The notes under the pieces: generated by a model
What the model saw: the letters and a program-made list of their open reading frames with translations, nothing else
Told to the model about the DNA's origin: nothing
Databases searched by the model: none
Shown here: positions 7,510 through 60,333 of the stretch, one piece after another
Position numbering within the stretch: position 1 is the first letter of the stretch
Layout of the letters: each line of letters opens with the position of its first letter
Made by a program: the position numbers and the translations under genes
Virus record (IMG/VR): IMGVR_UViG_2908446538_000001
Coordinates: 9,053-73,052 of that record
DNA: 64,000 bases
Reading direction: 5' to 3' (one strand)
From: a virus
Lineage: Duplodnaviria; Caudoviricetes

Positions 7510-8232
7510 TTAGCGGGCGTACATTCCCCACCAGAACACGTGCCCTAGGATGCCGATCTGCTCATCCTGCATCTGCTGGAAGCTATAGTCCTCATCCGGG
7601 TGATCGTCGCGGTTGAAGCTTCGCAACCTGATCCCTGATGGAAGCCTGAAAACCTGTTTAACACGCATCTGGCCATTATGGTTTATGGCGTATAGGTCGC
7701 CATCGATGATGTCGCCCAGGCTCGTTTTGCCCAAGTCGATGCCCACCGTTGCGCCATCGCGCAACACCGGGGTCATGCTGTTGCCACGGACCGTCACGCA
7801 CTTGGCGTTGCTGAACTGAACGCCGTTTTCGCGAAGGTTCTTCTTGCGGAAGCGAAGGCTTTCCCCCTCGTCCTCCTGAATGACAAAGCGGCCCGATCCT
7901 GCGGCCAGTTCGACTTCGCGCAGAAATGGAACCTCAACCTCGTCATCGTCGAGCGGGGTCTTTTCGTCCCAGCCATCAATAGCCTTCATGGAGCTGGCAT
8001 TCGAGTCAGGCGCGGTTCGGCCCGTTTCACCAGGACCGCCATCTATTAAGTAGCCCATCGAAGTGCCGAGGGCCTCAGCCAGGTCGCCCAGCTTGCTATT
8101 CCGTGGCGTAGAGACGCCAGCCTCCCACTTCTGGACAGCCTGAGGGCTCAGCCCCAAACGACGGGCCAACTCCGACTGGCTAAGGCCTGCCGCCTCTCTT
8201 TTTTGCGCGATGCGCTCACCGATATTTTTCAT
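7510..8232 (-). CDS. cI: CI-like repressor (XRE HTH + S24 autopeptidase)
   Basis: HTH LSQSELARRLGLSPQAVQKWE; AAGSG cleavage loop, GNSM catalytic Ser, VK catalytic Lys; start moved to MKNIGERI. Confidence 0.95.
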   Translation of the reverse strand: MKNIGERIAQKREAAGLSQSELARRLGLSPQAVQKWEAGVSTPRNSKLGDLAEALGTSMGYLIDGGPGETGRTAPDSNASSMKAIDGWDEKTPLDDDEVEVPFLREVELAAGSGRFVIQEDEGESLRFRKKNLRENGVQFSNAKCVTVRGNSMTPVLRDGATVGIDLGKTSLGDIIDGDLYAINHNGQMRVKQVFRLPSGIRLRSFNRDDHPDEDYSFQQMQDEQIGILGHVFWWGMYAR

Positions 8233-12953: not shown

Positions 12954-13219
12954 GCCATAACTTCAAGCCGGGCGATCTGGCACTGGTGATTTCAGGTGGG
13001 TACCTGGGCGAGACCGCGGAACTGGTGCGTTTTGTAATGCCTGGCGACCTGATCGTCTCACCCACCACGGGCAAGGTTTACGAATTCAGGCCGGCCGCCA
13101 GAGTAGGTGGATGGTTGTGCAAATTCAGATGCAGTCATGCGGTAAAGCACGAAAAGAACCTGATGCCCCTGCGCGGCCGATTCACCCTAGAGCAGCAGAA
13201 AGCCAAGGAGGCTGTATGA
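12950..13219 (+). CDS. Phage hypothetical protein
   Basis: FKPGDLALV start; ATGA coupling on both sides. Confidence 0.65.
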   Translation: MSHNFKPGDLALVISGGYLGETAELVRFVMPGDLIVSPTTGKVYEFRPAARVGGWLCKFRCSHAVKHEKNLMPLRGRFTLEQQKAKEAV

Positions 13220-13848
13220 AGCGCACACCGCTGCAACGAAAGACTCCACTCGCGTCCGGTGGCCCGCGCCGCAAGCGCTGCCCAGAGTGCCGGGTGATGT
13301 TCACGAAAGCGCGTGAGTCGCAGGTGGTGTGCGGCGAGATCGAGTGCGCCATAGCACACGGTAAGTCGGAGAAGGGTCGGACGATCGCCGGGAAAGCCCT
13401 GGCAGAAGTTGGGCGCCGCGAAATCAAGGTCCGCAAGGAGGCCCTGAAGACCAGAGCGGATCACTTGCGCGAAGCTCAGGCGGCGGTGAACGAGTACGTG
13501 CGCCTGCGTGACGCTCACCTGCCATGCATCAGCTGCGACTCCACGCCCAACGACAACGACCTCATGACCGGCAGCCGCTGGGATGCCGGGCACTACCGAT
13601 CCGTCGGCGCCTGCCCAGAGCTGCGCTTCGAGCCGTCGAACATCCACCGGCAGTGCGTGAAGTGCAACCGCAACCTATCCGGAAATGCCGTGGAGTACCG
13701 CATCCGCCTGGTGATGCGCATCGGTGCCGAGAAGGTCGCTTGGCTGGAAGGCCTGCACGCGCCCTGCAAGTACACCGTGGATGAGATCAAGGCCATCAAG
13801 GCCAAGTACCGTGCAATGACCAGAGAACTCAAGAGGGCTGCAGCATGA
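13216..13848 (+). CDS. ninG: NinG/Rap recombination endonuclease
   Basis: VRLRD...PCISC...WDAGHYRSVGA.PELRF...NIHRQC..CN...SGN. Confidence 0.92.
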   Translation: MKRTPLQRKTPLASGGPRRKRCPECRVMFTKARESQVVCGEIECAIAHGKSEKGRTIAGKALAEVGRREIKVRKEALKTRADHLREAQAAVNEYVRLRDAHLPCISCDSTPNDNDLMTGSRWDAGHYRSVGACPELRFEPSNIHRQCVKCNRNLSGNAVEYRIRLVMRIGAEKVAWLEGLHAPCKYTVDEIKAIKAKYRAMTRELKRAAA

Positions 13849-14525
13849 ACTACCAAAACGTCATTTCTGCAGTCGTCCGCGCTCTGGCAGCGGAAACAAT
13901 CAACAGCGCCGGGGGTTGCAACGTCGAGCCGCGAGTGCAGACCAGTAAACTGAAGGGCGAGATCACCGGTAAGGATGCGGCACTGCTCGCCGACTGCATC
14001 GTGCACAAGCTGCTGCACGCCCAGCTCAGCCCGCGCCACTGGAACGCACTGGTGGCGAAGTACAGCACCCACCGCGGGCGCAAGATCGATTCCATTGGGC
14101 GGCTTGTAGCGGTTGTGCCTTCGCCTGCGCCACTGCGCTTCACTCAGCAGGCGGTTCTGGTCTGGGCTGTGCCGCAACAGTCGAAAGGCATCCAGCGCGC
14201 AGTGGTCGAGGTCAAAGCTCCAAAGCATCGGGAAAACAAGGATGAGGGCCAGTGGGATTGGCGAAACAAAGCGGCCGACGCCGATGCTGCCCGCGCCAAC
14301 AAGCACGCCAGGTCAGTGGCTGAAACGAAGCCGGGTGAGATGATCGTCCTCGCCGATTCGAACTACGACATGACGAACTGGGATTCCCAAGGCCTGACGG
14401 AGCGCACCTATCAGCGCTGGAATAAGACCATCAAGGGGGCGCTTGAGTCGATGGTGGACGAGGCTTTGGTCGATGCACAGCACATGCTTGAGGTCGTGGG
14501 AGTGCTGGAGTGCGAAGCGGCGTGA
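13845..14525 (+). CDS. Late antiterminator Q-like protein
   Basis: Last gene of the nin operon, followed by a promoter-terminator unit like pR'-tR'. Confidence 0.7.
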   Translation: MNYQNVISAVVRALAAETINSAGGCNVEPRVQTSKLKGEITGKDAALLADCIVHKLLHAQLSPRHWNALVAKYSTHRGRKIDSIGRLVAVVPSPAPLRFTQQAVLVWAVPQQSKGIQRAVVEVKAPKHRENKDEGQWDWRNKAADADAARANKHARSVAETKPGEMIVLADSNYDMTNWDSQGLTERTYQRWNKTIKGALESMVDEALVDAQHMLEVVGVLECEAA

Positions 14526-14544
14526 AATAGTCCCTCAAAAGGGC

Positions 14545-14574
14545 TTGCAATATCATGTCGCCATGTCGCATTAT
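14545..14574 (+). promoter_or_regulatory. Late promoter pR'-like with CATGTCG direct repeat
   Basis: TTGCAA-18-CATTAT; CATGTCG twice in the spacer (candidate Q-binding element). Confidence 0.55.
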
Positions 14575-14616
14575 TCACCCATCCTGTCATTCCTGCGTGT
14601 GTAGGACTGAGTTACA

Positions 14617-14646
14617 AGAACCCCGGCCATCGTTTCGGGGTTTTTC
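14617..14646 (+). terminator. tR'-like intrinsic terminator
   Basis: AACCCCG-loop-CGGGGTT followed by T run. Confidence 0.75.
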
Positions 14647-14719
14647 GTTATTACCCTTCTGTTAAAAAACTTGGTGACCTACTATGGCCTTTCTCATTGA
14701 TTTGCTAGAGGAAGGCGCC

Positions 14720-15205
14720 TTGACTGATTTTTCGGACATTCGAAACGCGTACGCCAAGCATAAAACAGCGCAGGATGCTTACTGGAATGATCTTCAGACG
14801 AAGGCATACAGTATTTATCGAGGTTTTGAGCATCACGTTGGCTTGGCTGGGCAGAAGTTCGCCACGCCAGGTAAGCCAGAAGAAGCCTACTGTCAGGTTG
14901 GCGTCATGGAGTCGGGCAAATTCAAGCAGGTACTCGGGCCTTCGTTTAGCGGTTCCGATTTGCAAGTTGAGTTTGCTATTCGCCTTGTCGTCGATGAGTC
15001 ACCTATCTCGTTACCGAAAAAGGCTCTGATCATCCAGCTGCGACTTGGAAAGTCCAAGGATGGCTACTTGGCTCGCCTGAAAACGAGCGAAGGCTGGTTT
15101 GATTTCTCTATTTCTTTCGCATTCGCGGAAAGCGAATTGAAGAATCTTTATGAGGCGATTGCGCTGGATGTGATTGACTCAATGGATGAATCAATTTTCG
15201 GTTGA
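14720..15205 (+). CDS. Moron, hypothetical protein
   Basis: TTG start after GAGGAAGG; AT-richer than neighbours; own terminator at ~15220-15246. Confidence 0.7.
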   Translation: MTDFSDIRNAYAKHKTAQDAYWNDLQTKAYSIYRGFEHHVGLAGQKFATPGKPEEAYCQVGVMESGKFKQVLGPSFSGSDLQVEFAIRLVVDESPISLPKKALIIQLRLGKSKDGYLARLKTSEGWFDFSISFAFAESELKNLYEAIALDVIDSMDESIFG

Positions 15206-15261
15206 AGCTTCATTCAAAGAGCCCGGCCACTGAGCCGGGTTTTTTATTGCCTGCGTTTCAC

Positions 15262-15495
15262 TGCAGCCAGGGCAGCCTCACGGAAGGCCTGGACGCTGAT
15301 AAGCCGGTAGTGCAGCGCTACGGAAAAAAACCGGCAGCCCGTGCATCCTGACCTCACTGTGCTTCCAGGGTGGCGCGAGACACGAACGGCGAGATCGGTG
15401 CATTGGGGCGTCGACGCCGGAAAGGTCTTTGGCAGACAGCGCGGAAAGACGCGCGCACCTATTCAGGGCCTCAGCATTCGCTGGGGCTTTTCTCG
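15262..15495 (+). ncRNA. Candidate structured RNA in the late leader
   Basis: Consecutive hairpins found by eye (CCAG/CTGG + GCCT/AGGC, GCCGG/CCGGC, GCGCG/CGCGC); no good ORF. Confidence 0.4.
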
Positions 15496-15511
15496 TTATG
15501 AGGCACAGCAA

Positions 15512-16042
15512 ATGTCCGGCTCTATCCAATCCAGCAACTACGTGCCGGGCGTTTCCGGCTGGAAAATCGATACTGATACGGGATCCTTCGAGCTTGCATC
15601 TGACCGGGTGACAGTTTCAGGGGTTGACCCTAAAGCGGTGTACTGCGGAAAGTCCCGCAAAGAAAGCCATAAGCCATTCATCGTTGTGGACGGCGTGATC
15701 TACATCAGCCAGGCATCCATCGAGGACGCCTCAATCGCTAAGGCCAAAATCGGTAACGAATGGTCGGTAAGGATTTGCGTGACGCCAGACGGTGAAAAAT
15801 ACGCAGCCGGCCTTGGTTTGGGCGTCCATCCGGAGTGCCTAGTGCAGCCTGATCGCTTCGACATCAACGGTCTAGATGCCTCGAAGATCCTTGAGATGCT
15901 AGCGGGCAAGATCAGCAAGACCGAATTGTGCCGCCAGGTACTGGCAAATAGTGATCAGCTCGGATCCAGCTTCGCCGAACAGGTCAAGGATTTGCTCCGC
16001 AAGGAGCTCATGCCTGGCGGTCTGCTGCACCGCTCCCGCTAA
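15512..16042 (+). CDS. DUF1983-like protein composed of tail-tip J segments in reversed order
   Basis: Four blocks match this prophage's own J protein; TGAGG RBS; start at MSGSIQSS. Confidence 0.8.
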   Translation: MSGSIQSSNYVPGVSGWKIDTDTGSFELASDRVTVSGVDPKAVYCGKSRKESHKPFIVVDGVIYISQASIEDASIAKAKIGNEWSVRICVTPDGEKYAAGLGLGVHPECLVQPDRFDINGLDASKILEMLAGKISKTELCRQVLANSDQLGSSFAEQVKDLLRKELMPGGLLHRSR

Positions 16043-16077
16043 TCCATTCCTTCACTCCCTATCGAGCAGGTAAAAAT

Positions 16078-16272
16078 ATGAGCAAGGAGGACGTGGAAAG
16101 AAAAGTCATTGTCCTTGTTCCTTCTGGCGAATTTGATCCACGATCGCTGAGAGCAATGCTCTTAACTACCCAGGGTGAATTCAAAGACACCTTCGTTAAA
16201 GTCCATGACAAGGGCGCCTTGTTTCAGGAACTCAAGCCCGAGCACGGCCTGATAGGTTCTTCCGTTGGCTGA
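16078..16272 (+). CDS. Small hypothetical protein overlapping the protease gene tail-to-tail
   Basis: 64 aa ORF with CAGGT RBS-like site. Confidence 0.45.
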   Translation: MSKEDVERKVIVLVPSGEFDPRSLRAMLLTTQGEFKDTFVKVHDKGALFQELKPEHGLIGSSVG

Positions 16273-16617
16273 GAGCGGGGTTGACACGAAGCTGGCTGCA
16301 TAATGCTCTGAGTGTCCGTCGATTGAAAAAATCGAAGGCCTCTCCTGTGAGGCGAGAGTCCCCGTACCGCCCATCACGTTTATCGTTGCTGCACGGTGAT
16401 AGCTAAAGGCGTTAGCCAGGCCTTCATCCATGTAAAAGCGGTCTGCACCTGTATCTATCAACGCGTAAACGATGACGGGTGTCGAGCCCGCAGCGGGGCT
16501 GTGAAAGTTTTCGGGCGCAGCTGGCTGCATATTTATCGCGATGACCGGAGAGCCGCCCGGAGTGTCGCTGACTAATCCGGCATCAGACATGAATTGAATC
16601 TTGATCTTTGTAGCCAT
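16162..16617 (-). CDS. Retropepsin-like (clan AA) aspartic protease
   Basis: ALIDTGA catalytic motif and VLGLEFL second motif; antisense to late operon. Confidence 0.8.
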   Translation of the reverse strand: MATKIKIQFMSDAGLVSDTPGGSPVIAINMQPAAPENFHSPAAGSTPVIVYALIDTGADRFYMDEGLANAFSYHRAATINVMGGTGTLASQERPSIFSIDGHSEHYAASFVSTPLSANGRTYQAVLGLEFLKQGALVMDFNEGVFEFTLGS

Positions 16618-16740
16618 GCTAGCCGTCCATCGTTTTGCTATAGGGGCAATGACGATAGCACGGAGCCATATGCCCTCCACTGAGCGGGCTTTTTATTCCT
16701 GCGCTCCCAGACCAGGGAGAACAACAAATACGGAGCAACG

Positions 16741-17112
16741 ATGGATCCTACTGACCTCGGCCCGGGCACAGCTACCTGGCTGGGCGGTAGCGCCACCGTG
16801 GTGCTGGGTGGCTTGCTTTGGCTGCGCCGGTTCCTCTCCAAGGATGCGACTGACCGGGCAATGGATAGCGCCGATATCGGCACGCTGAAGCGGCTGAACG
16901 AACTGCTGAACCAAGAGCGCGCCGCCCGCAAAGAAGCCGAGTCCCGCGCCGATCAGTTCGCCAAGGAGCGCAACGACCTTGCCGCCGCAGTAGGCCGCAT
17001 GGAAGGCAAGATCGAGGCCCTGACTAGTCAGGTCGCCCAACTTACTGACCGCGTGACGCAGCAGAGCGACGAGATCACTCGCCTGCGTACCAAGCTGGGA
17101 GGTATCGCCTGA
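16741..17112 (+). CDS. Putative holin-type membrane protein (1 TM + coiled coil)
   Basis: Hydrophobic N-terminus, GGAG RBS, lysis position between Q and terminase. Confidence 0.55.
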   Translation: MDPTDLGPGTATWLGGSATVVLGGLLWLRRFLSKDATDRAMDSADIGTLKRLNELLNQERAARKEAESRADQFAKERNDLAAAVGRMEGKIEALTSQVAQLTDRVTQQSDEITRLRTKLGGIA

Positions 17113-17429: not shown

Positions 17430-17486
17430 GCCGCGCCACGTTTTCGAATGCGCCAAATCGTGGCGCGCAATCATGAGGAATCACCC

Positions 17487-17717
17487 ATGGATAACCAGCA
17501 CAAGAAAATCACCGGCTACCGCGACCTGAGCCAGTCCGAGATCGACGGCATGAATTCCATCAAGGCGCTGGAAGCTGACACCGGCGAACTGTTCAAGCAG
17601 ATCGGCCAGATTGAAGGCGTTGACCCGCGCCTGCTGGCTCTGGCCAAGACCAACCTGCAACAGGGCTTCATGTGGTTCGTGCGCTCTATCGCCAAGCCAG
17701 CCGATCCATTCAGCTGA
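17487..17717 (+). CDS. acb2: Anti-CBASS Acb2 homologue (cyclic nucleotide sponge)
   Basis: [21 protein letters not shown].IK and R..A.AKT.LQ.G.M...R.IA.P match Acb2/Vs.4 family as recalled; GAGGA RBS. Confidence 0.88.
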   Translation: [76 protein letters not shown]

Positions 17718-17908
17718 TGGGCGACGTAACCCGCCTGCGCCATGCGCTACCGATGAGTCAGGACATCAACGCAGCGGTAAGCGCTCTCGACAAGGCCATT
17801 GCTACCGCCGTGGACGCCGCCAAGGCTGCCGGGCTCCCCCAGGGCCTGATCGTTGGATTGCTCCACGGCCATGCCCATGCACAGACACACCAAATGGTGA
17901 CGCAATGA
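17717..17908 (+). CDS. Small hypothetical protein
   Basis: TGATG coupling to acb2. Confidence 0.65.
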   Translation: MGDVTRLRHALPMSQDINAAVSALDKAIATAVDAAKAAGLPQGLIVGLLHGHAHAQTHQMVTQ

Positions 17909-18159
17909 CCGTCAAGGTTCTTGAGTTCAAGCGGGAAGACTGGCGCGACGCCGCGAAGACACTGCGCAAGATCGCCGATGACCTGGATGCCGGTGAACAT
18001 CCCGAGTGCACTGTAGGTGCCTTGACGCTGATCGGTGCGAAGGGAGAGGTGACTGTGTTCGGCCTCGGCCCCAAGTGCGACGACCTGCAATGCCTGGGGG
18101 CGATGCGCCTGGGGGAGCAGAAGCTGATTGATGTGCTGCTCGATGGCGGGGAAGGGTAG
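17905..18159 (+). CDS. Small hypothetical protein (MTVKVLEFKREDW...)
   Basis: ATGA coupling to previous gene. Confidence 0.7.
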   Translation: MTVKVLEFKREDWRDAAKTLRKIADDLDAGEHPECTVGALTLIGAKGEVTVFGLGPKCDDLQCLGAMRLGEQKLIDVLLDGGEG

Positions 18160-18190
18160 GTGTGCCGCAGGTGAGTGCGGCACGGGTGGA

Positions 18191-38497: not shown

Positions 38498-41400
38498 ATG
38501 GGCGCAGCACAGAAGCTGGATATACACGGCGCCAAAGGTGGCGAGAGCAAGCCGAAGTCTCCGGTAGAGTCACCCGACAGCCTGCGCTCGACCAACGTGG
38601 CCAAAATCCTGATCGCCGTGGGCGAGGGTGAATTCGACGGAACACCCACTGCGCGCGATATCTTCCTCGACAACACCCCAATCCAGGATGCCAGCGGCAA
38701 CTACAACTTCACCAACGTGAAGTGGGACTGGCGTCCGGGTTCTGTCGAGCAGACCTACATCCCGGGTATACCATCGGTCGACAACGAGACCTCGCTGAAT
38801 ATAGAGCTGCGTAGCGGAACGCCGTGGGTTCAGTCGCTGACCAACCTGCAGCTGTCGGCGGCACGTATTCGCCTGGCTACGCCGCGGCTTGCGAGCCAGG
38901 ACAACGAAGGCAATATTGGTGGTTACAGCATCCAGTACGCGGTCGACGTGGCCACCGATGGTGGGGCCTATCAGGAGGTATTGGTTGGCGCTATTACAGG
39001 CAAAGCCACCACTCGCTACGAAAAGTCCATGCGTATCGATTTGCCGCCGGCCACCAGTGGATGGCTGATTCGCGTTCGCCGCATTACCCCAAACCAGAAC
39101 ACCGACAAGATTGCAGATAGCCTGTTCATCGCCGGCTACACCCAGGTGATCGATGCAAAGCTGCGCTACCCGAACACCGCGCTACTTTTTGTGCAATTCG
39201 ACGCCGAGCAGTTCACCAAAATCCCGGCGGTCACCGTGAAGTGCAAGGCCCGCCGCTGGCAGGTGCCGAGCAACTACGACCCGGTGGCCCGCACGTACTC
39301 TGGCGCCTGGGATGGCACCATGAAGGAGGCGTGGACGAATAACCCCGCCTGGGTCACTTACGGTATCTGCACTCAGGACCGCTTCGGCCTTGGTAAGCGC
39401 ATAAAACCGTGGATGGTCGACAAGTGGGAGCTGTACCGCATCGCGCAGTACTGCGACCAGTTGGTGTCGAACGGTGCCGACGGCGTTGAGCCGCGTTTCC
39501 TGTGCGACATGAACCTGCAGGGCAAAGCCGATGCATGGTCTCTGCTGCGTGATATCGCCGGCATTTATCGCGGCATGACGTACTGGGCTCAAGGTCAACT
39601 GGTCATGCAGGCAGATATGCCGCGCTCGCAAGATATCGACTACGTCTTTACCCGCTCCAATGTGATCGACGGGAAGATCTCGTACGGCAGCGCCTCGGCG
39701 AAAACGCGTTTCACTCGGTGCCTGGTCAGCTATGACAATCCGCTGAACAACTACGACACCGACGTCACCGTCTATTCCGACCTGCCGCTGCAGCGCCGTT
39801 TGGGCGACAAGCCAACTGAAATCAGTGCCATCGGCTGCACTCGGGCATCTGAGGCCCAGCGCCGCGCTAAATGGCTGGTGCTGAGCAACAACCAGGACCG
39901 CACCATCAGCTTCAGGACCGGTATGGAAGGCCGTATCCCGCTGCCAGGGTTCATCATCCCCGTTGCCGACTCGTTGCTGGCTGGTCGGGAGATCGGCGGG
40001 CGCATTGCGGCGGCGTCAGGGAAGGTCATTACCCTGGACCGTGACACCCTGGCCAAGGCGGGTGACCGGTTGGTGGTCAACCTTCCCGGCGGGCGGGCAG
40101 AAGGCCGCACCGTGGAAAGCGTGAGCGATCGCAACGTAACCGTGACCATTGCTTACAGCGAGGCACCAGCTGCACAGCTTCAGTGGGCAATCGACGCTGA
40201 CGACCTGGCAATCCCTCTATATAGAGTGATGAGGACTGCACGGACGCCAGGGGGCGATTACGAAATCAGCGCCTTGCAGTACGAGCCAAGCAAGTTCGCC
40301 AGCATCGACACTGGCGCACGCCTCGAAGACCGCCCGATCAGCGTCATACCAATCACGGTGGTGCCGCCGCCGGAAAGCGTAACCGTCACGTCGAACGTGT
40401 CGATCGACCAGGGCCTGGCCATCAGCACCATGAACATCTCGTGGCCAGCCGTCACCGGCGCGGTCGCCTACGACGTGGAGTGGCGCAAGGACAGCGGCAA
40501 CTGGATCAAGGTGCAACGCACCGGCTCCACCAGCCTTGATGTCACCGGGATTTACGCGGGCGCCTATCTGGCCCGCGTGCGCTCGGTGAGCGCCTTCGAA
40601 ATCTCGTCGATCTGGAAGAGCTCAAACCTGACCAACTTGGAAGGCAAGGTTGGCCTGCCGCCGGCGGTGTCTTCCCTGACCACAACCAGCGAATTGTTTG
40701 GGGTCGGCATCAAGTGGGGCTTCCCACCTGGTGCAGAGGACACCCAGCGAACCGAGGTGTGGTATGGGCCTGCAAACGATCTGGGAGCCGCTACCAAGCT
40801 GGCCGACCTGGCTTACCCGCAGGCTGAATACCGCATGCAGCAGCTGCAGGCGGGCGCAACCCTGTTCTTCTGGGCGCGCTTGGTGGACCGTACCGGCAAC
40901 GTCGGGCCGTTCTATCCGGTTGTCGACGGGGTTATGGGGCAGGCCAGCTCTGAGGCTGGGCCAATCCTCGATCTGCTCGCCGGCAAGGTCACGAAAACTG
41001 AGCTGGGCAAGGATCTTCTGGATGAGCTTGAAGGCCTGCAGGACCAGATCGACTCGCTTGATGGTTTGAAGGGCTACGATCCAGAAGCCACCTACCTGAA
41101 AGGCCAGATGGTGGTGGAGGGTGGGCGAATCTATCAGGCCTTCGTAGATGTTCCGGTAGGCACACCACCGCCGAACGGCGCTTTCTGGCTGGATGTTGGC
41201 CAGTCTGTCGAGACTGCGAACGGCCTGGCCCAGCAAGTGGCAACCAACAAAGCGGACATCACGGAGCTCGACGGCGTCGTCACGGCCCAGGCCAGCATGA
41301 CCAACGCATTGCGCGCCTCGGCGCGCGATGACAGTGGCAGCGGTGCGAAGGCTGATGCACTGAGAGGATACGCCAGCACTGTCGCTATCGTCGAAGAGAG

Positions 41401-41956
41401 CAAGGTCAGGGCTACCGCCATCGAGGCCGAAGCGACCAAGACAACGAAGCTTGAAGCGACTGTTGGACAGAACACTTCTGCCATTCAGCAAACGTCCTCA
41501 GCGTTGGCCAACACCAATGGCCGGCTGCAGACATTGTGGTCAGTGAAGATGGAGACCACCGCCGGTGGACAGAGGTACGCGGCCTCGTTCGGTCTCGGTC
41601 TTCAGGTCGATCCATCTGGTGTGTCGTCACAGTTCGTGGTCAGGGCTGACACGTTCATGCTGTTGAACTTGAATAACGGCACGCCGGTGTCACCGTTCTC
41701 TGTGTCTGGCGGGCAAACCTTTGTCAGTTCGGCGTTTATTCAGGATGGCACCATCACCAACGCTAAGATCGGCGAATACATCAGCTCGACCAACTACATC
41801 GCTGGCCAGCAGGGCTGGATTCTCCGGAAGGATGGATCGTTCGAAATCAACGGGATTGTTCCTGGTCAAGGGCGCTCCATGATGACGAATCGCTCTATGC
41901 GGTTTTGGGATAACAATAACATGAAGAGAGTGCAGCTAGGAGATCAAACCGAATGA
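38498..41956 (+). CDS. Tail tip / central fibre protein J
   Basis: GEGEF start, WTNNPAW, FN3-like repeats, C-terminal DUF1983 region. Confidence 0.95.
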   Translation: MGAAQKLDIHGAKGGESKPKSPVESPDSLRSTNVAKILIAVGEGEFDGTPTARDIFLDNTPIQDASGNYNFTNVKWDWRPGSVEQTYIPGIPSVDNETSLNIELRSGTPWVQSLTNLQLSAARIRLATPRLASQDNEGNIGGYSIQYAVDVATDGGAYQEVLVGAITGKATTRYEKSMRIDLPPATSGWLIRVRRITPNQNTDKIADSLFIAGYTQVIDAKLRYPNTALLFVQFDAEQFTKIPAVTVKCKARRWQVPSNYDPVARTYSGAWDGTMKEAWTNNPAWVTYGICTQDRFGLGKRIKPWMVDKWELYRIAQYCDQLVSNGADGVEPRFLCDMNLQGKADAWSLLRDIAGIYRGMTYWAQGQLVMQADMPRSQDIDYVFTRSNVIDGKISYGSASAKTRFTRCLVSYDNPLNNYDTDVTVYSDLPLQRRLGDKPTEISAIGCTRASEAQRRAKWLVLSNNQDRTISFRTGMEGRIPLPGFIIPVADSLLAGREIGGRIAAASGKVITLDRDTLAKAGDRLVVNLPGGRAEGRTVESVSDRNVTVTIAYSEAPAAQLQWAIDADDLAIPLYRVMRTARTPGGDYEISALQYEPSKFASIDTGARLEDRPISVIPITVVPPPESVTVTSNVSIDQGLAISTMNISWPAVTGAVAYDVEWRKDSGNWIKVQRTGSTSLDVTGIYAGAYLARVRSVSAFEISSIWKSSNLTNLEGKVGLPPAVSSLTTTSELFGVGIKWGFPPGAEDTQRTEVWYGPANDLGAATKLADLAYPQAEYRMQQLQAGATLFFWARLVDRTGNVGPFYPVVDGVMGQASSEAGPILDLLAGKVTKTELGKDLLDELEGLQDQIDSLDGLKGYDPEATYLKGQMVVEGGRIYQAFVDVPVGTPPPNGAFWLDVGQSVETANGLAQQVATNKADITELDGVVTAQASMTNALRASARDDSGSGAKADALRGYASTVAIVEESKVRATAIEAEATKTTKLEATVGQNTSAIQQTSSALANTNGRLQTLWSVKMETTAGGQRYAASFGLGLQVDPSGVSSQFVVRADTFMLLNLNNGTPVSPFSVSGGQTFVSSAFIQDGTITNAKIGEYISSTNYIAGQQGWILRKDGSFEINGIVPGQGRSMMTNRSMRFWDNNNMKRVQLGDQTE

Positions 41957-42282
41957 GTTCTGGATTGCGATTGTGGTCATCAACTGGGGCTCTTGAGTTT
42001 GATACCAGCACATCTACTTACAGAATCGTTCTTTCTGTGCTGGTTTCTTATGCGGGCGAACCAAGGAGTCAAAAAACTTTTTCCGTTCCTGGGTGTAATC
42101 CAAGTAATTCGATCTGCTTTCTTTTGCCGGTTAATAATGATGCGTCGCAAACCGCTACCAATAGGCAACTTGAGTGCCAAATTGGTGAGGGTATTGCCTA
42201 CGTGAGGAACTATCTTGCGTCTAACCCTAATGACTCTATCTCCCAGGCAACAATGCGATTAATGGTTGCGAGGTGGGCTTGA
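41953..42282 (+). CDS. Tail-tip associated protein
   Basis: MSSGLRLWSSTGALEFD start typical of genes after J; low GC. Confidence 0.7.
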   Translation: MSSGLRLWSSTGALEFDTSTSTYRIVLSVLVSYAGEPRSQKTFSVPGCNPSNSICFLLPVNNDASQTATNRQLECQIGEGIAYVRNYLASNPNDSISQATMRLMVARWA

Positions 42283-42929
42283 TGAGCTATGGGCTAACAG
42301 TTATCAATGACTCAAGTGTAGTGTCTATTGATTCGGAATACGCACGGCTTTGCGTATTCCATAAGGGGACTTACACCGCGAACGTAGGCATAACGTTTCA
42401 GAACGTTGTAACTACCCAGGAACCTCCGCTTGTTTTTATAAGGCCCCAGAATAACGGTGCATTCATACAGCTGGGCTTGACTCTAGGCGGTTCCGCCGGT
42501 GCTTGGGCCGGAGCCACTGTTGTTTCGGGGCAGGCTCACTCTGGGGAAATATTTGTAGCGGCATTTTCATCAAAACCCATAACTTCATATGGATTGCGGA
42601 TGTGGGATGCTGACTCAAAGCAGATATTTGACTCTGGAACTCAAGCTGTAATTTTTACTCGCGCGGTTCAAAACTGGAGTTATACACATACTACCTATAG
42701 CTCTCAGGGGTTGCCGACAAATTGGTACGCTATTACTTTGAACTACGCGCTTGGTGATTACCTAATGATAAATAACGCGAGAATGCCCATGATGGGGGCA
42801 AATAACGAGACCCGCTCCGGGGGACTTAGGTATGATTTTGCATCTTCCGTTTTGAGATTTAGTGTTACAACGGTTTCAAATCCATTTTACTTCTCGCTCC
42901 AGGCTATTTTCGGAAAGATTGCAGTCTGA
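42282..42929 (+). CDS. Tail-tip associated protein
   Basis: Two YGL-(T/R)...D repeats; low GC. Confidence 0.7.
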   Translation: MSYGLTVINDSSVVSIDSEYARLCVFHKGTYTANVGITFQNVVTTQEPPLVFIRPQNNGAFIQLGLTLGGSAGAWAGATVVSGQAHSGEIFVAAFSSKPITSYGLRMWDADSKQIFDSGTQAVIFTRAVQNWSYTHTTYSSQGLPTNWYAITLNYALGDYLMINNARMPMMGANNETRSGGLRYDFASSVLRFSVTTVSNPFYFSLQAIFGKIAV

Positions 42930-42999
42930 CATATGACTCTGTAATAAATTGAAGTTTTATACGCCGCCTTGATCGGTTTTTTATTGCTTGGAGAAAGTT

Positions 43000-43728
43000 A
43001 TGGTTTGGCAACGAGCAGGAACTGTTTCTGTGCAAAATGGCAGCACTACAGTCATCGGCACGAACGTAGATTTCGCCGCAAGTAGCAGGAACGGCGACTC
43101 ATTCGTTGGCCCAGACGGGGCGACTTATGAGTTGGCGAACGTCGCAAGCTCCACCGTTATCTCGATCCTGCCAGAGTACAAAGGGCCAACTGTAGCCGGC
43201 GCTGCCTACGCCATCATGCCGGTGCAGGGCTACGACAAAATGCTGTCGGATGCCTTCAATAACTTGAATAACCAGTTCGGTTCGAAGCTGGCGGCGCTGG
43301 GCACCACGGGCAACTACGACATTCTGCCTGTCAGCAAAGGCGGTACGGGTCGCGCATCGGTCGGCACGGCAATTGACTCGGATGTTACGACCGGGGCCAT
43401 ATCCGGTACTGCGGGGCAACTTCTTAAAGTCGGTGACTTCGGTATCGGTTCTACCTCGGTTCCTTATATAGCAAACGTGAACGAGATCTCAAAGGCAGGG
43501 ATTTATAAGTTCGACTCTAATACCCTGGCTCTTCCGTCGGGATTCGGCACCGTCACTCATTGCGCTTATGACGCATCCAGCAGCAACTGGACGCAGCAGG
43601 CCTTCTATATGAACTCTTCTGTGTCCTATTTCAGGCAGTCAATCAACGGATCAATAAGCGATTGGGCGAAGGTTTACACCACCGCCAATACCACCCGAAT
43701 GGCCGACGGTACACTCAAGGCGATCTGA
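43000..43728 (+). CDS. Tail fibre protein
   Basis: W.RAGTVSV.NGS.TV.G N-terminus, LPVSKGGTG repeat, VYTTANTT.MADGTLKAI end. Confidence 0.85.
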   Translation: MVWQRAGTVSVQNGSTTVIGTNVDFAASSRNGDSFVGPDGATYELANVASSTVISILPEYKGPTVAGAAYAIMPVQGYDKMLSDAFNNLNNQFGSKLAALGTTGNYDILPVSKGGTGRASVGTAIDSDVTTGAISGTAGQLLKVGDFGIGSTSVPYIANVNEISKAGIYKFDSNTLALPSGFGTVTHCAYDASSSNWTQQAFYMNSSVSYFRQSINGSISDWAKVYTTANTTRMADGTLKAI

Positions 43729-43730
43729 TC

Positions 43731-44117
43731 ATGGCAAGAGCAGCTTTAAATATCGTCGGCAAGACCGGCGAGAAGTATTTCATGGACTCAATGGGCGGCA
43801 CCGACGTTGGTTGCTACCGCAAAGACGTAGGCGTGTATTGCGTCACCGGCAGCCAAGGCATGGTGCCTTATCCCCCTGAGGATGTGGGCTGGGGCTACAC
43901 ACTTCACCCATCCGAGAGCCGGGCAGAGGTGGAAACGGATTTTCAAGATGGCCTGCTCACCATTTATGTGACCATGCGCGGCGCGCCATACGACCTCAAG
44001 ACCATAATCACTTTGCACATTTTGGTGCCAGACTTGCCTGCGTCGCAGAATCCGCCAATCGTCAGCACCGCGTCAGCGGGAGATCCTCAGCCACTTGGCG
44101 ATACCGCTGAATCCTGA
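43731..44117 (+). CDS. Tail fibre-associated protein
   Basis: Directly follows fibre gene; GVYCVTG motif. Confidence 0.65.
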   Translation: MARAALNIVGKTGEKYFMDSMGGTDVGCYRKDVGVYCVTGSQGMVPYPPEDVGWGYTLHPSESRAEVETDFQDGLLTIYVTMRGAPYDLKTIITLHILVPDLPASQNPPIVSTASAGDPQPLGDTAES

Positions 44118-44173
44118 GAAACGCCAGAACACCACGGCCGCCTTGAGCGGTTTTTTTTCGCCTGGAGAAAAGC

Positions 44174-44599
44174 ATGCCTATCACCGAAACCCGTGGGGTG
44201 CGCAATAAGAACCCCGGCAACATCGACTACAGCCCGGCCAACCAGTGGCAAGGCCAGCTCAAGCCCGACCCGTCCATCGAGAAGCGCTTCGCCAGGTTTG
44301 ACACCGCCGAGAACGGTATCCGCGCCCTGGGCAAGGTGCTGCTGACGTACCAGCGCAAGCATGGCTTGAAGACCGTGGAGGCCATCATTGGCCGCTGGGC
44401 GCCGAGCGGGGAGAATGATACGGCCGCTTACGTCGGTGCCGTCGAAGCGAACACCGGTACCCGGCCAGGTGCCGAAGTCGACCTGACGCGGCCGGCGGTG
44501 ATGACCGGTTTCGTCAAGGCGATCATCCATCACGAAAACGCGGGGTATGCCTACCCTGATGCTGTGCTGGCTGAAGGCGTGCGGCGGGCGCTGGCATGA
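44174..44599 (+). CDS. Probable endolysin (RGVRNxNPGNI family)
   Basis: RNKNPGNI...F..AENGIRA...WAP..ENDT..Y...AII.HEN; coupled to Rz/Rz1. Confidence 0.65.
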   Translation: MPITETRGVRNKNPGNIDYSPANQWQGQLKPDPSIEKRFARFDTAENGIRALGKVLLTYQRKHGLKTVEAIIGRWAPSGENDTAAYVGAVEANTGTRPGAEVDLTRPAVMTGFVKAIIHHENAGYAYPDAVLAEGVRRALA

Positions 44600-45126
44600 T
44601 GCCTGCGCAGAAACTGGTCGGGCTGGCTGTGTTGGTTATGGTGCTGATGGCCGGTGCCTGCGGCGTGACCTGGCAGGTTCAGGACTGGCGCCTGGGGAAG
44701 AAGCTCGCCGAGCAGCTCACGGAGCAGGGCATTGCGCACCAGAAAGATCTGGACGCAATCACCGGCGAGGCCTGGCGTCAGCAGGCCGCCGAGCAAGACA
44801 AGCGGCTGGCCACTGAGCAGCAGCTCGCCACCGTGGACCAACAACACACCAAGGAATTATCCGATGCCCAGCGCAATCAGGCTCTGCTGCGTGATCACCT
44901 TGCTACTACTGAACTGCGGCTGTCAGTCCTTATCGACGCCACGGATTCAGCCAGTGGCTGCGACGTGCCTGCCGCCCCCGGCGCCGCAGGCGTGGTTCAT
45001 GCAGCCCGTCGAGCCCAACTTGACCCAGCGCATGCTCAAAGAATTATCGCCATCACCGACGATGGGGATAACGCCGTGATCGCGCTGCGTGCGTGCCAGG
45101 CGTACGTCAGGGCTGTGGCTCGGTGA
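44596..45126 (+). CDS. Rz / i-spanin
   Basis: N-terminal TM, coiled coil, RIIAITDDGDNAVIALRACQAYV end. Confidence 0.88.
   Translation: MMPAQKLVGLAVLVMVLMAGACGVTWQVQDWRLGKKLAEQLTEQGIAHQKDLDAITGEAWRQQAAEQDKRLATEQQLATVDQQHTKELSDAQRNQALLRDHLATTELRLSVLIDATDSASGCDVPAAPGAAGVVHAARRAQLDPAHAQRIIAITDDGDNAVIALRACQAYVRAVAR
44864..45079 (+). CDS. Rz1 / o-spanin lipoprotein embedded in Rz
   Basis: +1 frame inside Rz; lipobox-like LNCGC; Pro-rich CLPPPAPQAWFM. Confidence 0.8.
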   Translation: MPSAIRLCCVITLLLLNCGCQSLSTPRIQPVAATCLPPPAPQAWFMQPVEPNLTQRMLKELSPSPTMGITP

Positions 45127-51139: not shown

Positions 51140-51180
51140 AGCATTTGCCAACCCCAAAATCCCCCGTCATCATCCCCCTT

Positions 51181-51915
51181 ATGCAAAAACGCAACGTTTC
51201 AACCGTCTTAAGAGAACTCCTAGACCGCGACCGGATCTCCCCCACGGAGCTTCACCGGCGTACTGGCGTGCCTCAATCCACACTCTCGCGAATCCTCAGC
51301 GGCAAGATCGTTGATCCGTCGGACAAGCATATCTCGCGCATCGCCGAGTACTTCCGTGTCAGCACCGACCACTTGCGCGGGCGCGCGGCGGTGGGGGCTT
51401 TGCGGGATGACGGGCGTGACCCGATGCATTCGGAACTCAAGGACATAAGCCTGTGGGACGACGACACGCCCGTTAATGATGACGAGGTGTCGATCCCCTT
51501 TCTGCGTGAGGTTGAATTGGCTGCTGGATCAGGAAGATTCGTCATCGAGGAAAGCGAGAAGGCCAGCTTGCGTTTCGGCAAGCGCAGCCTGCGGCATAAC
51601 GGTGTGCAGTTTGACCAGGCCAAGTGTGTAACGGTGCGCGGCAACAGTATGTTGCCGGTGCTGCGCGACGGCGCGACGGTCGGGGTGAACGCAGGCAAGA
51701 GTGGCATTGGCGATATCGTCGATGGCGACTTGTATGCCATCAACCACAATGGCCAGCTGCGGGTGAAACAGCTCTACCGCCTGCCTTCGGGGATTCGCCT
51801 GCGCAGTTTCAATCGCGATGAACACCCGGATGAGGACTACAGCTTCCAGGATATCCAGGATGAGCAGATCAGCATCCTCGGTCATGTGTTCTGGTGGGGC
51901 ATGTACGCCCGTTAA
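51181..51915 (+). CDS. prtR: PrtR-like LexA/CI-family repressor
   Basis: HTH + S24 domain (AAGSG, GNSM, RVK) at head of tailocin cluster. Confidence 0.93.
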   Translation: MQKRNVSTVLRELLDRDRISPTELHRRTGVPQSTLSRILSGKIVDPSDKHISRIAEYFRVSTDHLRGRAAVGALRDDGRDPMHSELKDISLWDDDTPVNDDEVSIPFLREVELAAGSGRFVIEESEKASLRFGKRSLRHNGVQFDQAKCVTVRGNSMLPVLRDGATVGVNAGKSGIGDIVDGDLYAINHNGQLRVKQLYRLPSGIRLRSFNRDEHPDEDYSFQDIQDEQISILGHVFWWGMYAR

Positions 51916-52046
51916 CCTCCTTACGTAAGACAAAGCCCGCCAGTGCGCGGGCTTTTTTTCGCCTGTAGAAAACCACCAAACCCTTAACCCACAAGGCCTG
52001 AAATGCACTCGTGCATTTCGATAGTGAAAATAAATGCATTTGCGCA

Positions 52047-52075
52047 TTGACTGTATATGCATACATGCATATTCT
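52047..52075 (+). promoter_or_regulatory. Sigma70 promoter of tailocin operon overlapped by TGCA-type operator repeats
   Basis: TTGACT-17-TATTCT; palindromes GAAATGCAC-TC-GTGCATTTC (52000-52019) and ATGCATACATGCAT. Confidence 0.75.
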
Positions 52076-52080
52076 TCATC

Positions 52081-52442
52081 TCAAGCCAGCCAACAAGGCC
52101 TGGTGGAGGCGGCAAGGATGCTGCCAAGGAAGACAAGGAAGGCACGCAACATCGGCAAGGACGCCATCGAAGCGATGGCAGGGAAGCCAGGCAACACCGG
52201 CAAGGATGCCGACGCTCTTTAGTTGTACCGCTTCAAGAAAACAGGCAGCGATGAACCGGCCTTAACGGTTCAGAGGGTTGGCAACTGACCCGGGTGTGCA
52301 GCGTAAAGCACCAGAAGCAGTTATCCGGCAGACAGGGATCGTGGTCGGAAAAACATCTTAGGAAAGAACCGTACCGCGCCAGTAGCGCCGAACGTTCGAA
52401 TCTGGACCGCATTACTGAAAAGCCCGGGCCACCGGGCTTTTT
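52081..52442 (+). ncRNA. Long tailocin leader with GGA-loop hairpins, ending in a terminator
   Basis: Seven GGA in 52105-52206, several in hairpin loops; AAAAGCCCGG-GCCA-CCGGGCTTTT at ~52418-52442. Confidence 0.5.
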
Positions 52443-52515
52443 GGAATGCCTACCCATAAATGGATTTACCCAAACACCGGCCCGTTGCCGGTAGTGCTCA
52501 GCCAGGAGGCGTGAC

Positions 52516-52854
52516 ATGACAAACGAGCAGCAAGCGTTAGCGGAAATGCCTATCTGGCTGGTGATCGTACTGGCGCTGATCGGCGGTGTATCCGGTGAAA
52601 TGTGGCGCGCCGACAAGGAGGGCGCCCGTGGTTGGTCGCTGATTCGGCGCCTGGCCCTGCGGTCCGGGGCGTGCATGGTGTGTGGGGTTTCTGCCCTGAT
52701 GCTGTGCTACGCCGCCGGTATGTCGATCTGGACGGCCGGCGCCATTGGTTGCCTGACCGCCATGGCCGGCGCCGACGTGGCCATCGGCCTCTATGAACGC
52801 TGGGCCGCCAAGCGTATCGGCGTTAACCAAGGCTCCGGCCAGGACCCGCAATAA
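52516..52854 (+). CDS. hol: Tailocin holin
   Basis: Three hydrophobic segments; MTNEQQALAEMPIWLVIVLALIGGVSGEMWRADK. Confidence 0.9.
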   Translation: MTNEQQALAEMPIWLVIVLALIGGVSGEMWRADKEGARGWSLIRRLALRSGACMVCGVSALMLCYAAGMSIWTAGAIGCLTAMAGADVAIGLYERWAAKRIGVNQGSGQDPQ

Positions 52855-52877
52855 CCGTTGCAAGGACGCTGATCAAA

Positions 52878-53393
52878 ATGGACCTTATCGAAAAACCCTC
52901 CCAATTGCCCCAATCCATCGGCGACGCACTGCGCGCCGCCTTCCCGGACTTGAAGGTCGGTAATCATCAGGACTTTCAAGGCACCGGGGATAAAACCGGC
53001 GTGCTGATCACGGTCGAGGGCAACGGCCCGGGCATTCGCTCCCGTGAGGGCCGTAAAGCTCACGCCTTGTCGATTTCGCTCAAGGCCATGGTCGCGCCGG
53101 GTGCATTGCCGTTCGATGCCTGCGATTTGGCCAGCCAACTAATGGACCTGGTGCTGGATAACCGCTGGAACCTGCCACGGGCTCAGTGTGATTTGCCGAC
53201 CACTATCGTTGCGGCTCCCTCACTGCATGCCACCGCAGAAACGGACTACGACACCTGGACCGTTTCCTTCACGCAAACCCTCTATCTCGGACCGGTGCTG
53301 CTCAACGATCCCACGGGCCAACCGCTGTTTGCCCGCACCTGGGAAGTCTCGAACATCAACGACCCCGATCAATACAAACCACTGGCGGAGTAG
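52878..53393 (+). CDS. Tail completion / hypothetical tailocin protein
   Basis: Position between holin and baseplate spike. Confidence 0.6.
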   Translation: MDLIEKPSQLPQSIGDALRAAFPDLKVGNHQDFQGTGDKTGVLITVEGNGPGIRSREGRKAHALSISLKAMVAPGALPFDACDLASQLMDLVLDNRWNLPRAQCDLPTTIVAAPSLHATAETDYDTWTVSFTQTLYLGPVLLNDPTGQPLFARTWEVSNINDPDQYKPLAE

Positions 53394-53396
53394 CCC

Positions 53397-54005
53397 ATGT
53401 TCGACGCGCTGTTACGCATGCAACTGGGGCCGATCATCGAGCGCTTGGCGGAGATGGAAACCCAGCTCGAAGACCTGTATCGACGCGCTGAAAGTTTCTG
53501 TCGGATTGGCACCTGCCAGGCAGTCGACGCCGCCAGCAGTACCTGCAAGGTCAGTCACGGTGACCTGCTCTCGCCATCGATCCGTTTTTTCAACCCCAGC
53601 GCGGGCGCGCAGAGCGAAACCCGCATCCCATCGGTGGGCGAGCAATGCCTGTTGCTCAACTACGGCGGCGGTGAAGGTGGCGCGCAGTCTGTGGCCTTGT
53701 TCGGTCTTAACAGTAGTCTGTTTCCGCCGGTTTCCAGCGTTGCCTCGCTGACCCGACGCCGCCACCAGGACGGCACCCAAAGCGAGTACGACGACGCCAG
53801 CCACACCTTCAACTGGGTCAACGGCCCCACCACCTTCAGCGGCTCCCGCGAACAGGTCGACGTCAAGGTCGGCGCCGCCAGCCTGACGATCAATGCCCAG
53901 AGCATCACCCTGCAAATCGGCGGCACCCGCCTGTTGCTGGACGCCGGCGGCGCGCACTTCAGCGGCCCGGTGGTGGACCACCAAGGACGCGTCATCAGCC
54001 CCTGA
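53397..54005 (+). CDS. Baseplate assembly protein V (spike)
   Basis: PSVGEQCLLL...QDGTQSEYDDASH. Confidence 0.9.
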   Translation: MFDALLRMQLGPIIERLAEMETQLEDLYRRAESFCRIGTCQAVDAASSTCKVSHGDLLSPSIRFFNPSAGAQSETRIPSVGEQCLLLNYGGGEGGAQSVALFGLNSSLFPPVSSVASLTRRRHQDGTQSEYDDASHTFNWVNGPTTFSGSREQVDVKVGAASLTINAQSITLQIGGTRLLLDAGGAHFSGPVVDHQGRVISP

Positions 54006-54017
54006 TAAGGACATCCC

Positions 54018-54350
54018 ATGATCGGAATCGACAGGAACACCGGGGCAGCCGTCGATGACTGGCTGCAATTCGTGCAGCGCGCCACCCGAGCGCTGACCAC
54101 CCCCGTAGGCACTCGCCAGAAACGGCCGCTGTACGGCTCACTGATCCCGCAATTGCTCGGCCAGAACCTCGGCGACGACCTGCTGATCCTCGCCCAAAGC
54201 CACGCCGCGCAAGCGTTCTACAACACCCAGAACGGCATCGCCGACTTTCAACCCCAGGTCATCGTCGCCACCCGCCAGGGCGCCGGTCTGTTGCTGCGTT
54301 TTGCCGGCACCTGGAAAAACCGCCAACAAACCTTCGAGGTCGTGACATGA
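54018..54350 (+). CDS. Baseplate wedge protein (gpW/gp25-like)
   Basis: GIDRNTG...LTTPVGTRQKRPLYGS.IP.LL. Confidence 0.88.
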   Translation: MIGIDRNTGAAVDDWLQFVQRATRALTTPVGTRQKRPLYGSLIPQLLGQNLGDDLLILAQSHAAQAFYNTQNGIADFQPQVIVATRQGAGLLLRFAGTWKNRQQTFEVVT

Positions 54351-55342
54351 GCATGCTGATCCCCGGCCAGAACCAACTGGCCGAACCGGCCATCATTACG
54401 GTGGATGAGTTCGAGCCGTTGCTGGCGGAATTCAAGGCGTTCGTGGTCGATTACGTCGCCACCCGCGCGCCGCAAAGCGCGGCCAAACTCAAGGTCAGCC
54501 TCGACAACGAAAGTGAGTTGCTGACTCTGGCCCTGGAAGCCTTTTGCGTGCGGCTGCAAACCCATGAGCGCAAATACAACGCCCGCATCAAGCAGATGCT
54601 GGCGTGGTGGGCCACCGGCAGCAACCTGGATGCCCGCCTGGCCGATATGGGCCTGGAGCGCCAAGTGCTTGACCCTGGCGACCCGGCTGCGTTTCCACCC
54701 GTACCGCCGACGTTGGAAAGCGATGACGACGCACGCCTGCGTTATTACCTGGCGCCACATGCCCCGGCAGCGGGGTCGCGAATGCAGTATCGGCGTGAGG
54801 TTTTCACTCTGGGCGAGCGGCCGTCGGTGAAAGTGCAAAGTGCCACGCCGGGCGTGGTAACCGTCAGCTACACCTTTGACCCGGACGGGTATGCGGCGCA
54901 GGTCAAGGACGGCAATGGGCGTCGAACCGCGCCCGGCGAAGTGATGGTCACTGTGCTTTCAAGGGAAGGCGACGGTACGCCGTCCACCGATTTGCTTGAC
55001 GGCGTTCGACGCCATTTCGCACGGCCGGATGTACGACCGGAGACCGACCTGGTCAGCGTACAAGGCGCGCAAATTTTGCCTTACAAAATCCGCGTGGTCG
55101 CAAAGATCAACGCCGGCCCGGATTCCGGACTCACGCAAGTCGCCGCGCAGAAACTGCTGCAGGACTACGCACAGTCCTGTCATCGCCTGGAAGGGCGGGT
55201 TGATCCGAGCTGGATTGACTATGCGATTCACAGTGCAGGGGCTGCGCAATTGCAGATCCTCGAACCCCTGGCGCCGATCATCTGCACCGCATTCCAGGCG
55301 CCGTATTGCACGGGGGTTGAAGTGGAGGTGCATACGCTATGA
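54347..55342 (+). CDS. Baseplate J-like protein
   Basis: LAWWATGSNLD...ESDDDARLR...AAGSRMQY. Confidence 0.9.
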   Translation: MSMLIPGQNQLAEPAIITVDEFEPLLAEFKAFVVDYVATRAPQSAAKLKVSLDNESELLTLALEAFCVRLQTHERKYNARIKQMLAWWATGSNLDARLADMGLERQVLDPGDPAAFPPVPPTLESDDDARLRYYLAPHAPAAGSRMQYRREVFTLGERPSVKVQSATPGVVTVSYTFDPDGYAAQVKDGNGRRTAPGEVMVTVLSREGDGTPSTDLLDGVRRHFARPDVRPETDLVSVQGAQILPYKIRVVAKINAGPDSGLTQVAAQKLLQDYAQSCHRLEGRVDPSWIDYAIHSAGAAQLQILEPLAPIICTAFQAPYCTGVEVEVHTL

Positions 55343-56597: not shown

Positions 56598-56622
56598 ACA
56601 TAACTAGTTCAGGAGTTTGAAT

Positions 56623-57261: not shown

Positions 57262-57271
57262 GGTGACTAAT

Positions 57272-57529: not shown

Positions 57530-57613
57530 CCCACCGCGAAAGCGGTTTTTTTTCGCCTCTCAAAGCCCCTCCCCGCAGGGGCTTTGGCGTTTTCCATTCG
57601 GAGAGTTCCAACC

Positions 57614-57787: not shown

Positions 57788-57789
57788 CC

Positions 57790-59462: not shown

Positions 59463-59493
59463 GGACGACCGTGGTTTGAAGTGGGCACAGTCA

Positions 59494-60328: not shown

Positions 60329-60333
60329 GCGGG

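Follow-up and report, generated by a model that had tools for sequence, protein, structure and literature searches.

A small phage protein made of J-type central tail fiber modules in reversed order, encoded at the probable start of a late operon

Recent work on lambda-like phages and F-type pyocins has shown that their central tail fibers drive penetration of the bacterial envelope by a large fold switch, and that several bacterial defenses target these fibers. In the F2 and F7 pyocins, as resolved by cryo-EM, the central straight fiber starts at residue ~818-819 and comprises a spine (818-864), a coiled coil able to convert into a beta-prism (921-1083), non-switching prism strands proposed to serve as the seed (1083-1119), an intertwined beta-helix (1119-1167), and, in the remainder, a narrower prism that is the attachment place of the receptor-binding proteins PyoF11/12 (PMC12874032, PMC13455828). 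Stand-alone paralogs of fiber parts are a known phenomenon, an example being gp56 of the Pseudomonas aeruginosa podovirus DEV, a gpJ-like trimeric short tail fiber found in the virion as a protein of its own (PDB 9ZE4; PMC12892993). On the side of defense, Tai blocks the assembly of tails by way of the C-terminal region of J, to which escape mutations map, and in phage phi80 the counter-defense is Ati, whose small gene belongs to the Q-controlled late operon and precedes the packaging module (PMC11364771). In the Bil system, a ubiquitin-like protein becomes conjugated to the central tail fiber (10.1101/2023.09.04.556158).

Within the window, by which we mean the whole stretch of 64,000 nucleotides that was analyzed, a stand-alone J-like gene (P0001; 15512-16042, plus strand) encodes a protein of 176 aa that belongs to phrog_18217, a stand-alone family within PF09327. 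Its ATG start is preceded by the Shine-Dalgarno sequence GAGG 8 nt upstream, as read from the sequence; an alternative GTG start at 15341 is unlikely, as the intervening stretch is a conserved non-coding leader. The phage's own J, the central tail fiber or tip attachment protein (38498-41956, plus strand; 1152 aa), represents the type of protein from which the modules of the small protein derive. When the two proteins were compared by BLASTP, exactly four significant local matches were found, with E-values of 6e-5 to 1e-3 that apply to this single comparison. From the N-terminus of the small protein, and all on the plus strand, these are block D (15524-15595; residues 5-28), which bears the family-invariant motif QSSNYVPGVSGWK and matches J 1095-1117 (41780-41848; E 1e-3); block C (15674-15754; residues 55-81), with the pattern PFIVVDG..YI...I..AKIG and homologous to J 1066-1092 (41693-41773; E 1e-4); block B (15761-15877; residues 84-122), with WSVR...GEKYAAGLGLG...DRF, matching J 1014-1059 (41537-41674; E 6e-5); and block A (15875-15943; residues 122-144), with ILEMLAGKISKTEL, homologous to J 819-841 (40952-41020; E 1e-4). 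The blocks, which are 40-55% identical to their counterparts, stand in the order D-C-B-A in the small protein and A-B-C-D in J, and they are followed by a family-specific C-terminal helix with the motif V+xxIRxELxPGGLLHRSR (15983-16039, plus strand).

Searches with profiles gave the same picture. A profile built from 30 family members picked out these four regions of J as well, likewise reversed (i-E 8e-4, 9e-5, 3e-8, and 5e-5), and the small protein scored 58.9 bits against Pfam PF09327, Phage_Tail_Tip or DUF1983 (cut-off 22; E 6e-16), in three separate, non-colinear stretches of which the best covers only profile positions 65-99 of 139, whereas J matches that profile colinearly over positions 1-133. 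The original prediction had given these coordinates and this reversal from inspection alone and had held that neither a simple duplication nor a circular permutation could produce it; the BLASTP comparison, the family profile, and the PF09327 stretches bear out the observation, including the significance of the block similarities, and we agree with the argument, which extends to tandem duplication. The Pfam search of the small protein returned PF09327 as the sole match at E <=1, with no Tfa-type fiber chaperone domain and without the N-terminal hub and FNIII domains PF13550 and PF24801, both of which are present in the window's J, along with its FNIII-A and Phage-tail_3 domains. We regard the ORF as a genuine and probably late gene of a small fiber-type protein, assembled by shuffling of J modules.

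The nature of the modules can be read from the solved pyocin fibers, since J of the window is closely related to the F2-pyocin tail fiber (PDB 25vf) and aligns with it over J 9-995 and 938-1119. On this alignment, block A would correspond approximately to the start of the spine, B to the seed prism, C to the beta-helix, and D to the narrow prism, an assignment that is approximate in that F2 and F7 numbering differ slightly. The small protein thus appears to consist of non-switching fiber modules, with neither the hub nor the switching coiled coil. A possible route to the new order is visible at one module border: block C ends in I-x-x-AKIG in both proteins, with block D as the next block in J and block B in the small protein, and long members of the family carry a C-tail-like 'AIEKAQVG' before D, as in J. 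Re-use of such a shared junction can explain, in a simple manner, how modules were re-ordered by recombination.

On the 3' side of J, genes of 109 and 218 aa (phrog_7961 and phrog_3370) occupy the position of PyoF11/PyoF12 within 41953-45126, followed by a side-fiber gene (42988-43728), an endolysin gene (44174-44599), and an Rz-like spanin gene (44596-45126); with endolysin and spanin genes placed after J, lysis functions are thus found at both ends of the late region. Farther along, 51145-64000 holds a separate contractile-tail cluster with a CI/PrtR-like repressor (51145-51915), baseplate wedge and tape-measure-like genes, a sheath (57790-58956), and a tube (58956-59462), which looks like an R-type tailocin beside the prophage.

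The J-like gene lies ~22 kb upstream of J and outside the tail-tip cluster that follows the L, K, and I genes. The gene order around it is NinG (13111-13848), a phrog_3412 protein, leader RNA, J-like gene, lysis genes, acb2, and terS. Upstream of the leader, an accessory ORF of unknown function (phrog_5091; 14684-15205) is closed by an intrinsic-terminator-like hairpin with a T-run, read from the sequence (15221-15246, plus strand). The leader itself, ~235 nt in length and conserved (15261-15497, plus strand), stands directly upstream of the J-like gene and resembles the late-operon leader of these Pseudomonas phages. Its first 79 nt (15261-15339) match the Proteo-phage-1 RNA, Rfam RF03044, at 78.6 bits. 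The same RNA is found upstream of J-like homologs in two other types of prophage, after the gene for antiterminator Q (L004, 7734-7813; L006, 7802-7882), and at L004 the J-like gene follows a Phage_antitermQ gene; between the RNA and the J-like gene of L004 there is also a weak match to the tRNA model (7878-7944; 30.9 bits, gathering score 29). In phage phiAH14a, a leader 88% identical to that of the window directly precedes the lysis genes, with no J-like gene between them. The J-like gene is therefore probably the first gene of the late operon, and this slot, first after the late leader or Q, is occupied in the window and in at least five other prophages. From such a position, co-expression with the tail genes would be expected despite the 22 kb that separate it from J.

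The surroundings of the gene also have the character of an accessory region. The GC fraction at the J-like gene is 0.47-0.56, compared with 0.60-0.65, and the low-GC island spans 14500-16750. The island includes a convergent ORF (16162-16680, minus strand; 172 aa) with a weak, retropepsin-like match to PF13975 (E 1e-3, below the cut-off), for which we found neither a PADLOC match nor conserved linkage to the J-like gene. The acb2 gene, of the anti-CBASS sponge family (17448-17717; PF24729, E 1e-18), is ~1.4 kb downstream of the J-like gene in the window and ~570 bp downstream in another genome, G134. The ORF that follows it (17758-18183, minus strand; 141 aa) adjoins acb2 in G134 as well, and the two may form a conserved accessory unit of two genes. 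A search for conserved neighbors found no accessory ORF flanking the J-like gene in the window that accompanies it elsewhere, and the J-like ORF and its neighbors had no match in PADLOC-DB at E <=0.01. A two-gene cassette in the manner of Tai/Ati was considered and rejected, there being no conserved neighbor or opposite-strand partner. The original prediction had described the gene as far from the tail genes and among morons near acb2. The distance of 22 kb, the low-GC accessory stretch, and the proximity of acb2 all stand, but the description is misleading, as the gene heads a probable late operon and is found inside the tail module in related phages.

This second slot, flanked by the genes for the tail terminator and the tail tube, recurs in Medea1, Aurca01, and a P. 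brassicacearum prophage, the last of which has a head and tail module matching that of the window (terL 91% and tube 87% identical). The tail-module copies have their own Shine-Dalgarno sequence 7 nt upstream of the start and a terminator-like hairpin downstream, and the same two genomic slots are used in unrelated phage backbones. All eight prophages whose available sequence extends as far as the J locus carry a J of this type (8/8), and the prophages with such a J mostly have PyoF11/12-like and side-fiber genes as well. On a metagenomic phage contig with a family member, the portal protein (L039, 7849-9654; 601 aa) also matches PF23474 (Acb1) and may be a portal-Acb1 fusion.

The family to which the small protein belongs is already cataloged but uncharacterized. 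The ORF matches phrog_18217, a family of unknown function, with an E-value of 1.7e-33 (residues 4-175 on profile positions 2-216 of 216). The family comprises more than 130 clusters, with members of 75-400 aa that, wherever a source is named, come from Pseudomonas and are annotated as 'DUF1983 domain-containing' or 'phage tail tip fiber protein'; more than 130 relatives are of 96-308 aa and 19 further ones of 309-400 aa. A search for longer relatives found none above ~400 aa and turned up no J of full length in which the order is reversed. A search of the literature on DUF1983 gave nothing on the small family, and we found no published description of a module inversion of this kind, which is apparently undescribed.

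The alignment of the family has 12 invariant columns and three strongly conserved regions, namely the invariant N-terminal motif QSSNYVPGVSGWK that is block D, PFIVVDGVTYI at the start of block C, and the C-terminal V+xxIRxELxPGGLLHRSR. Conservation is strongest at the protein's own N-terminus and at the C-terminal motif, and the PGGLLHR motif is found neither in J nor elsewhere in this genome. An exhaustive search with the C-terminal 57 aa against 1.8 billion representative proteins returned 11 matches; every one is a small member of the family that bears the motif at its very C-terminal end, and the motif was not seen in any large protein. The middle of the protein is variable: an Ala/Ser-rich segment resembling the fold-switching strands of J sometimes takes the place of block B, some members have neither block A nor block B, and the long forms (280-370 aa) have a coiled-coil-like extension at the N-terminus and, separating D from C, an insert of ~110 aa. 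When members were compared with the J of their own prophage, all four blocks were reversed in G118 and G293 and subsets were reversed elsewhere. In a matrix of similarities between the small proteins and cognate and foreign J proteins, there was no enrichment along the diagonal.

The original prediction had also proposed asking whether the reversed order is conserved and kept by selection. The reversal does recur against the members' own J proteins, and pairwise dN/dS of the family genes is 0.28-0.44, so that every pair stays below 0.45. For the closest pair of genes, dS calculated by segment runs from 0.05 in the first 30 codons to ~3.0 in block A, a swing that implies a recombination mosaic, as is seen in fiber genes. 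The gene is sporadic, occurring in 8 of the 301 species-representative genomes of the genus, and three of nine species-representative copies are disrupted, by two frameshifts at different sites and one in-frame TAG (G118, loci L031-L032; G245, L028-L029; G127, L020-L021), while each of these prophages retains an intact J gene. The TAG removes the C-terminal motif from the copy in which it occurs. The sporadic occurrence of the gene and its absence from close relatives such as phiAH14a imply that it is dispensable for tail assembly.

Models of the single chain were of low confidence, as would be expected for intertwined trimers: the AF2 monomer of P0001 had a pLDDT of 60.7, and that of the long form P0026 a pLDDT of 67.9. 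Within the latter, the N-terminal unit of block D plus insert was modeled confidently, and the beta strands of this unit weakly resemble the spike prisms of phages and type VI secretion systems (VIA-align, Z ~4, best 4.7). Foldseek returned no match in the PDB at E <=0.001, and a fold search of the ESM Atlas returned only the family's own clusters.

Taken together, we tentatively favor the view that the J-like protein is an optional trimeric fiber or adaptor protein of the tail. The small protein would most likely form a short homotrimeric rod, and this rod could be a dispensable, interchangeable structural addition to the tail, in the form of a mini-fiber or an adaptor, with the conserved termini making contacts and the variable middle being exchanged by recombination. 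We infer trimer formation, association with the virion, and any binding partner from several considerations. The modules map to obligate-trimer segments of the solved F-type pyocin fibers (PMC12874032, PMC13455828); the gene is placed late, several phages have it within their tail module, and its mosaic evolution is like that of fibers; conservation of the family extends across more than 130 clusters with invariant terminal motifs, and all eight prophages have the same J type; and there is the precedent of DEV gp56 and the confident D-plus-insert unit with its weak resemblance to spike prisms. Against a fiber, the gene is sporadic and not needed for tail assembly, the short forms have no recognizable receptor-binding or attachment domain and no adjacent gene for a receptor-binding protein or chaperone, the low-GC accessory island beside acb2 and the terminator-like hairpin in the tail slot are moron-like, three of nine copies are disrupted while J is intact, and the monomer models are of low confidence.

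The original prediction had suggested a J mimic that co-assembles with or chaperones the J trimer, a decoy for tail-sensing defenses, or an inhibitor of tail assembly in competing phages; its account is supported in part, for a stand-alone, conserved gene of J modules, but for none of these roles in particular. A possible, if doubtful, alternative is that the gene encodes a non-structural, late-made mimic of the conserved J modules that acts in conflict. It might do so as a sponge or decoy that spares nascent J from Tai-like inhibitors or from conjugation by the Bil ubiquitin-like system, or as a subunit that poisons the tails of related phages infecting the same cell. That the published Tai and Bil defenses act on the central fiber makes a decoy more plausible, and the gene sits in the same genomic hot spot as Ati of phi80, on an accessory, sporadic, low-GC island with acb2 nearby (~1.4 kb downstream, or ~570 bp in G134). 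Standing at the head of the late transcript, the gene would yield its product earlier than J, and its evolution is relatively fast. However, the blocks are only 40-55% identical to those of J and no more similar to cognate than to foreign J, whereas the specificity of Tai is lost by single substitutions (PMC11364771), and the best-conserved parts are the family-specific termini, which have no counterpart in J. The reversed order would, moreover, block in-register co-trimerization with J past one block. The degree of identity, the lack of a cognate preference, and the conserved non-J termini together disfavor both co-assembly with J and mimicry of the phage's own J. The slot in the tail module of several phages, and the lack of similarity to TaiEcA or AtiEcA, of a PADLOC match, and of a conserved partner gene, also count against a role in conflict. 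A closely related reading, in which the family is a late-made, off-virion mimic of the non-switching modules (seed prism plus spine, beta-helix, narrow prism) that works in one of two ways, the first of them as a sponge or a substrate sacrificed to keep Tai-like or Bil-like defenses from nascent J, seems to us marginally more doubtful.

A role in building the fiber tip, as a morphogenetic factor that is not retained in the virion, appears decidedly unlikely. Such a factor could act as a trimeric template or clamp that folds or stabilizes the metastable coiled-coil J, or it could help to load PyoF11/12-like receptor-binding proteins or side fibers. It would fit with the fact that the small protein holds exactly the seed prism and the spine, which flank the fold-switching coiled coil in the F7 pyocin, and with its late co-expression in a phage that has PyoF11/12-like and side-fiber genes after J. 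Yet the gene is not beside J or the fiber genes, many phages with the same type of J are without it, it does not co-vary with the cognate J, and the Pfam search found no similarity to known tail-fiber assembly proteins. It is very improbable that the gene is merely a functionless leftover of fiber-gene fragments joined by illegitimate recombination. The frameshifts or nonsense codon in three of nine representative copies and the variable architectures would be in keeping with decay, but the architecture is kept over more than 130 clusters at 30-70% identity with 12 invariant columns, no pair reaches a dN/dS of 0.45, the start of the gene is conserved and preceded by a Shine-Dalgarno sequence of its own, and the gene recurs in the same two slots of unrelated phage backbones.

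Whichever of these accounts applies, the J-like protein is a conserved, mobile mini-protein that contains only non-switching fiber modules, re-ordered, and that would be made at the start of late transcription. If structural, it would be a compact natural case of fiber modules that have been re-ordered and yet kept by selection, and it could be of use for the engineering of tailocins and phage fibers. If a mimic, it would represent a new type of counter-defense or a regulator of the fold switch. On either reading, it offers a defined and cheap target for experiments, being one protein of 176 aa with isolated carriers in Medea1 and Aurca01.

Among the known systems, Tai/Ati and Tab/anti-Tab are tail-assembly interference systems, and the resemblance to the former is one of position: the hot spot in phi80 is the same, a Q-controlled late region before the packaging genes, the target of Tai is the C-terminal part of J, and Ati is small and late-expressed like the J-like protein. 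Ati is, however, a protein of 76 aa that is not reported to be J-like, in contrast to the 176 aa of the J-like protein, and BLASTP of the ORF against AtiEcA and of the neighboring ORFs against TaiEcA gave only E >=1.7, the phi80 ORFs having been taken as Tai and Ati from their order and orientation. Another such system is DEV gp56, which is likewise a free-standing protein of J C-terminal fiber modules in which the C and D motifs are recognizable, and to which the ORF has a weak sequence match (9ZE4 chain N; E 0.059). The differences are that gp56 is 429 aa in length, with the modules in J order, C-D at the C-terminus, and an N-terminal attachment knob, and that its gene is followed by adaptor and receptor-binding protein genes (gp55 and gp54), whereas the J-like ORF is followed by a convergent ORF and lysis genes. 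A further comparison is with gpJ of lambda and the central fiber proteins of the F2 and F7 pyocins (PF09327), to which all four blocks are homologous and with which the junction motif I-T/S-x-AKIG is held in common. Compared with those proteins, the small protein is only 176 aa long, without hub, FNIII domains, or coiled coil and with an additional C-terminal motif, and where they run A-(coil)-B-C-D, it runs D-C-B-A and is encoded outside the tail-tip cluster.
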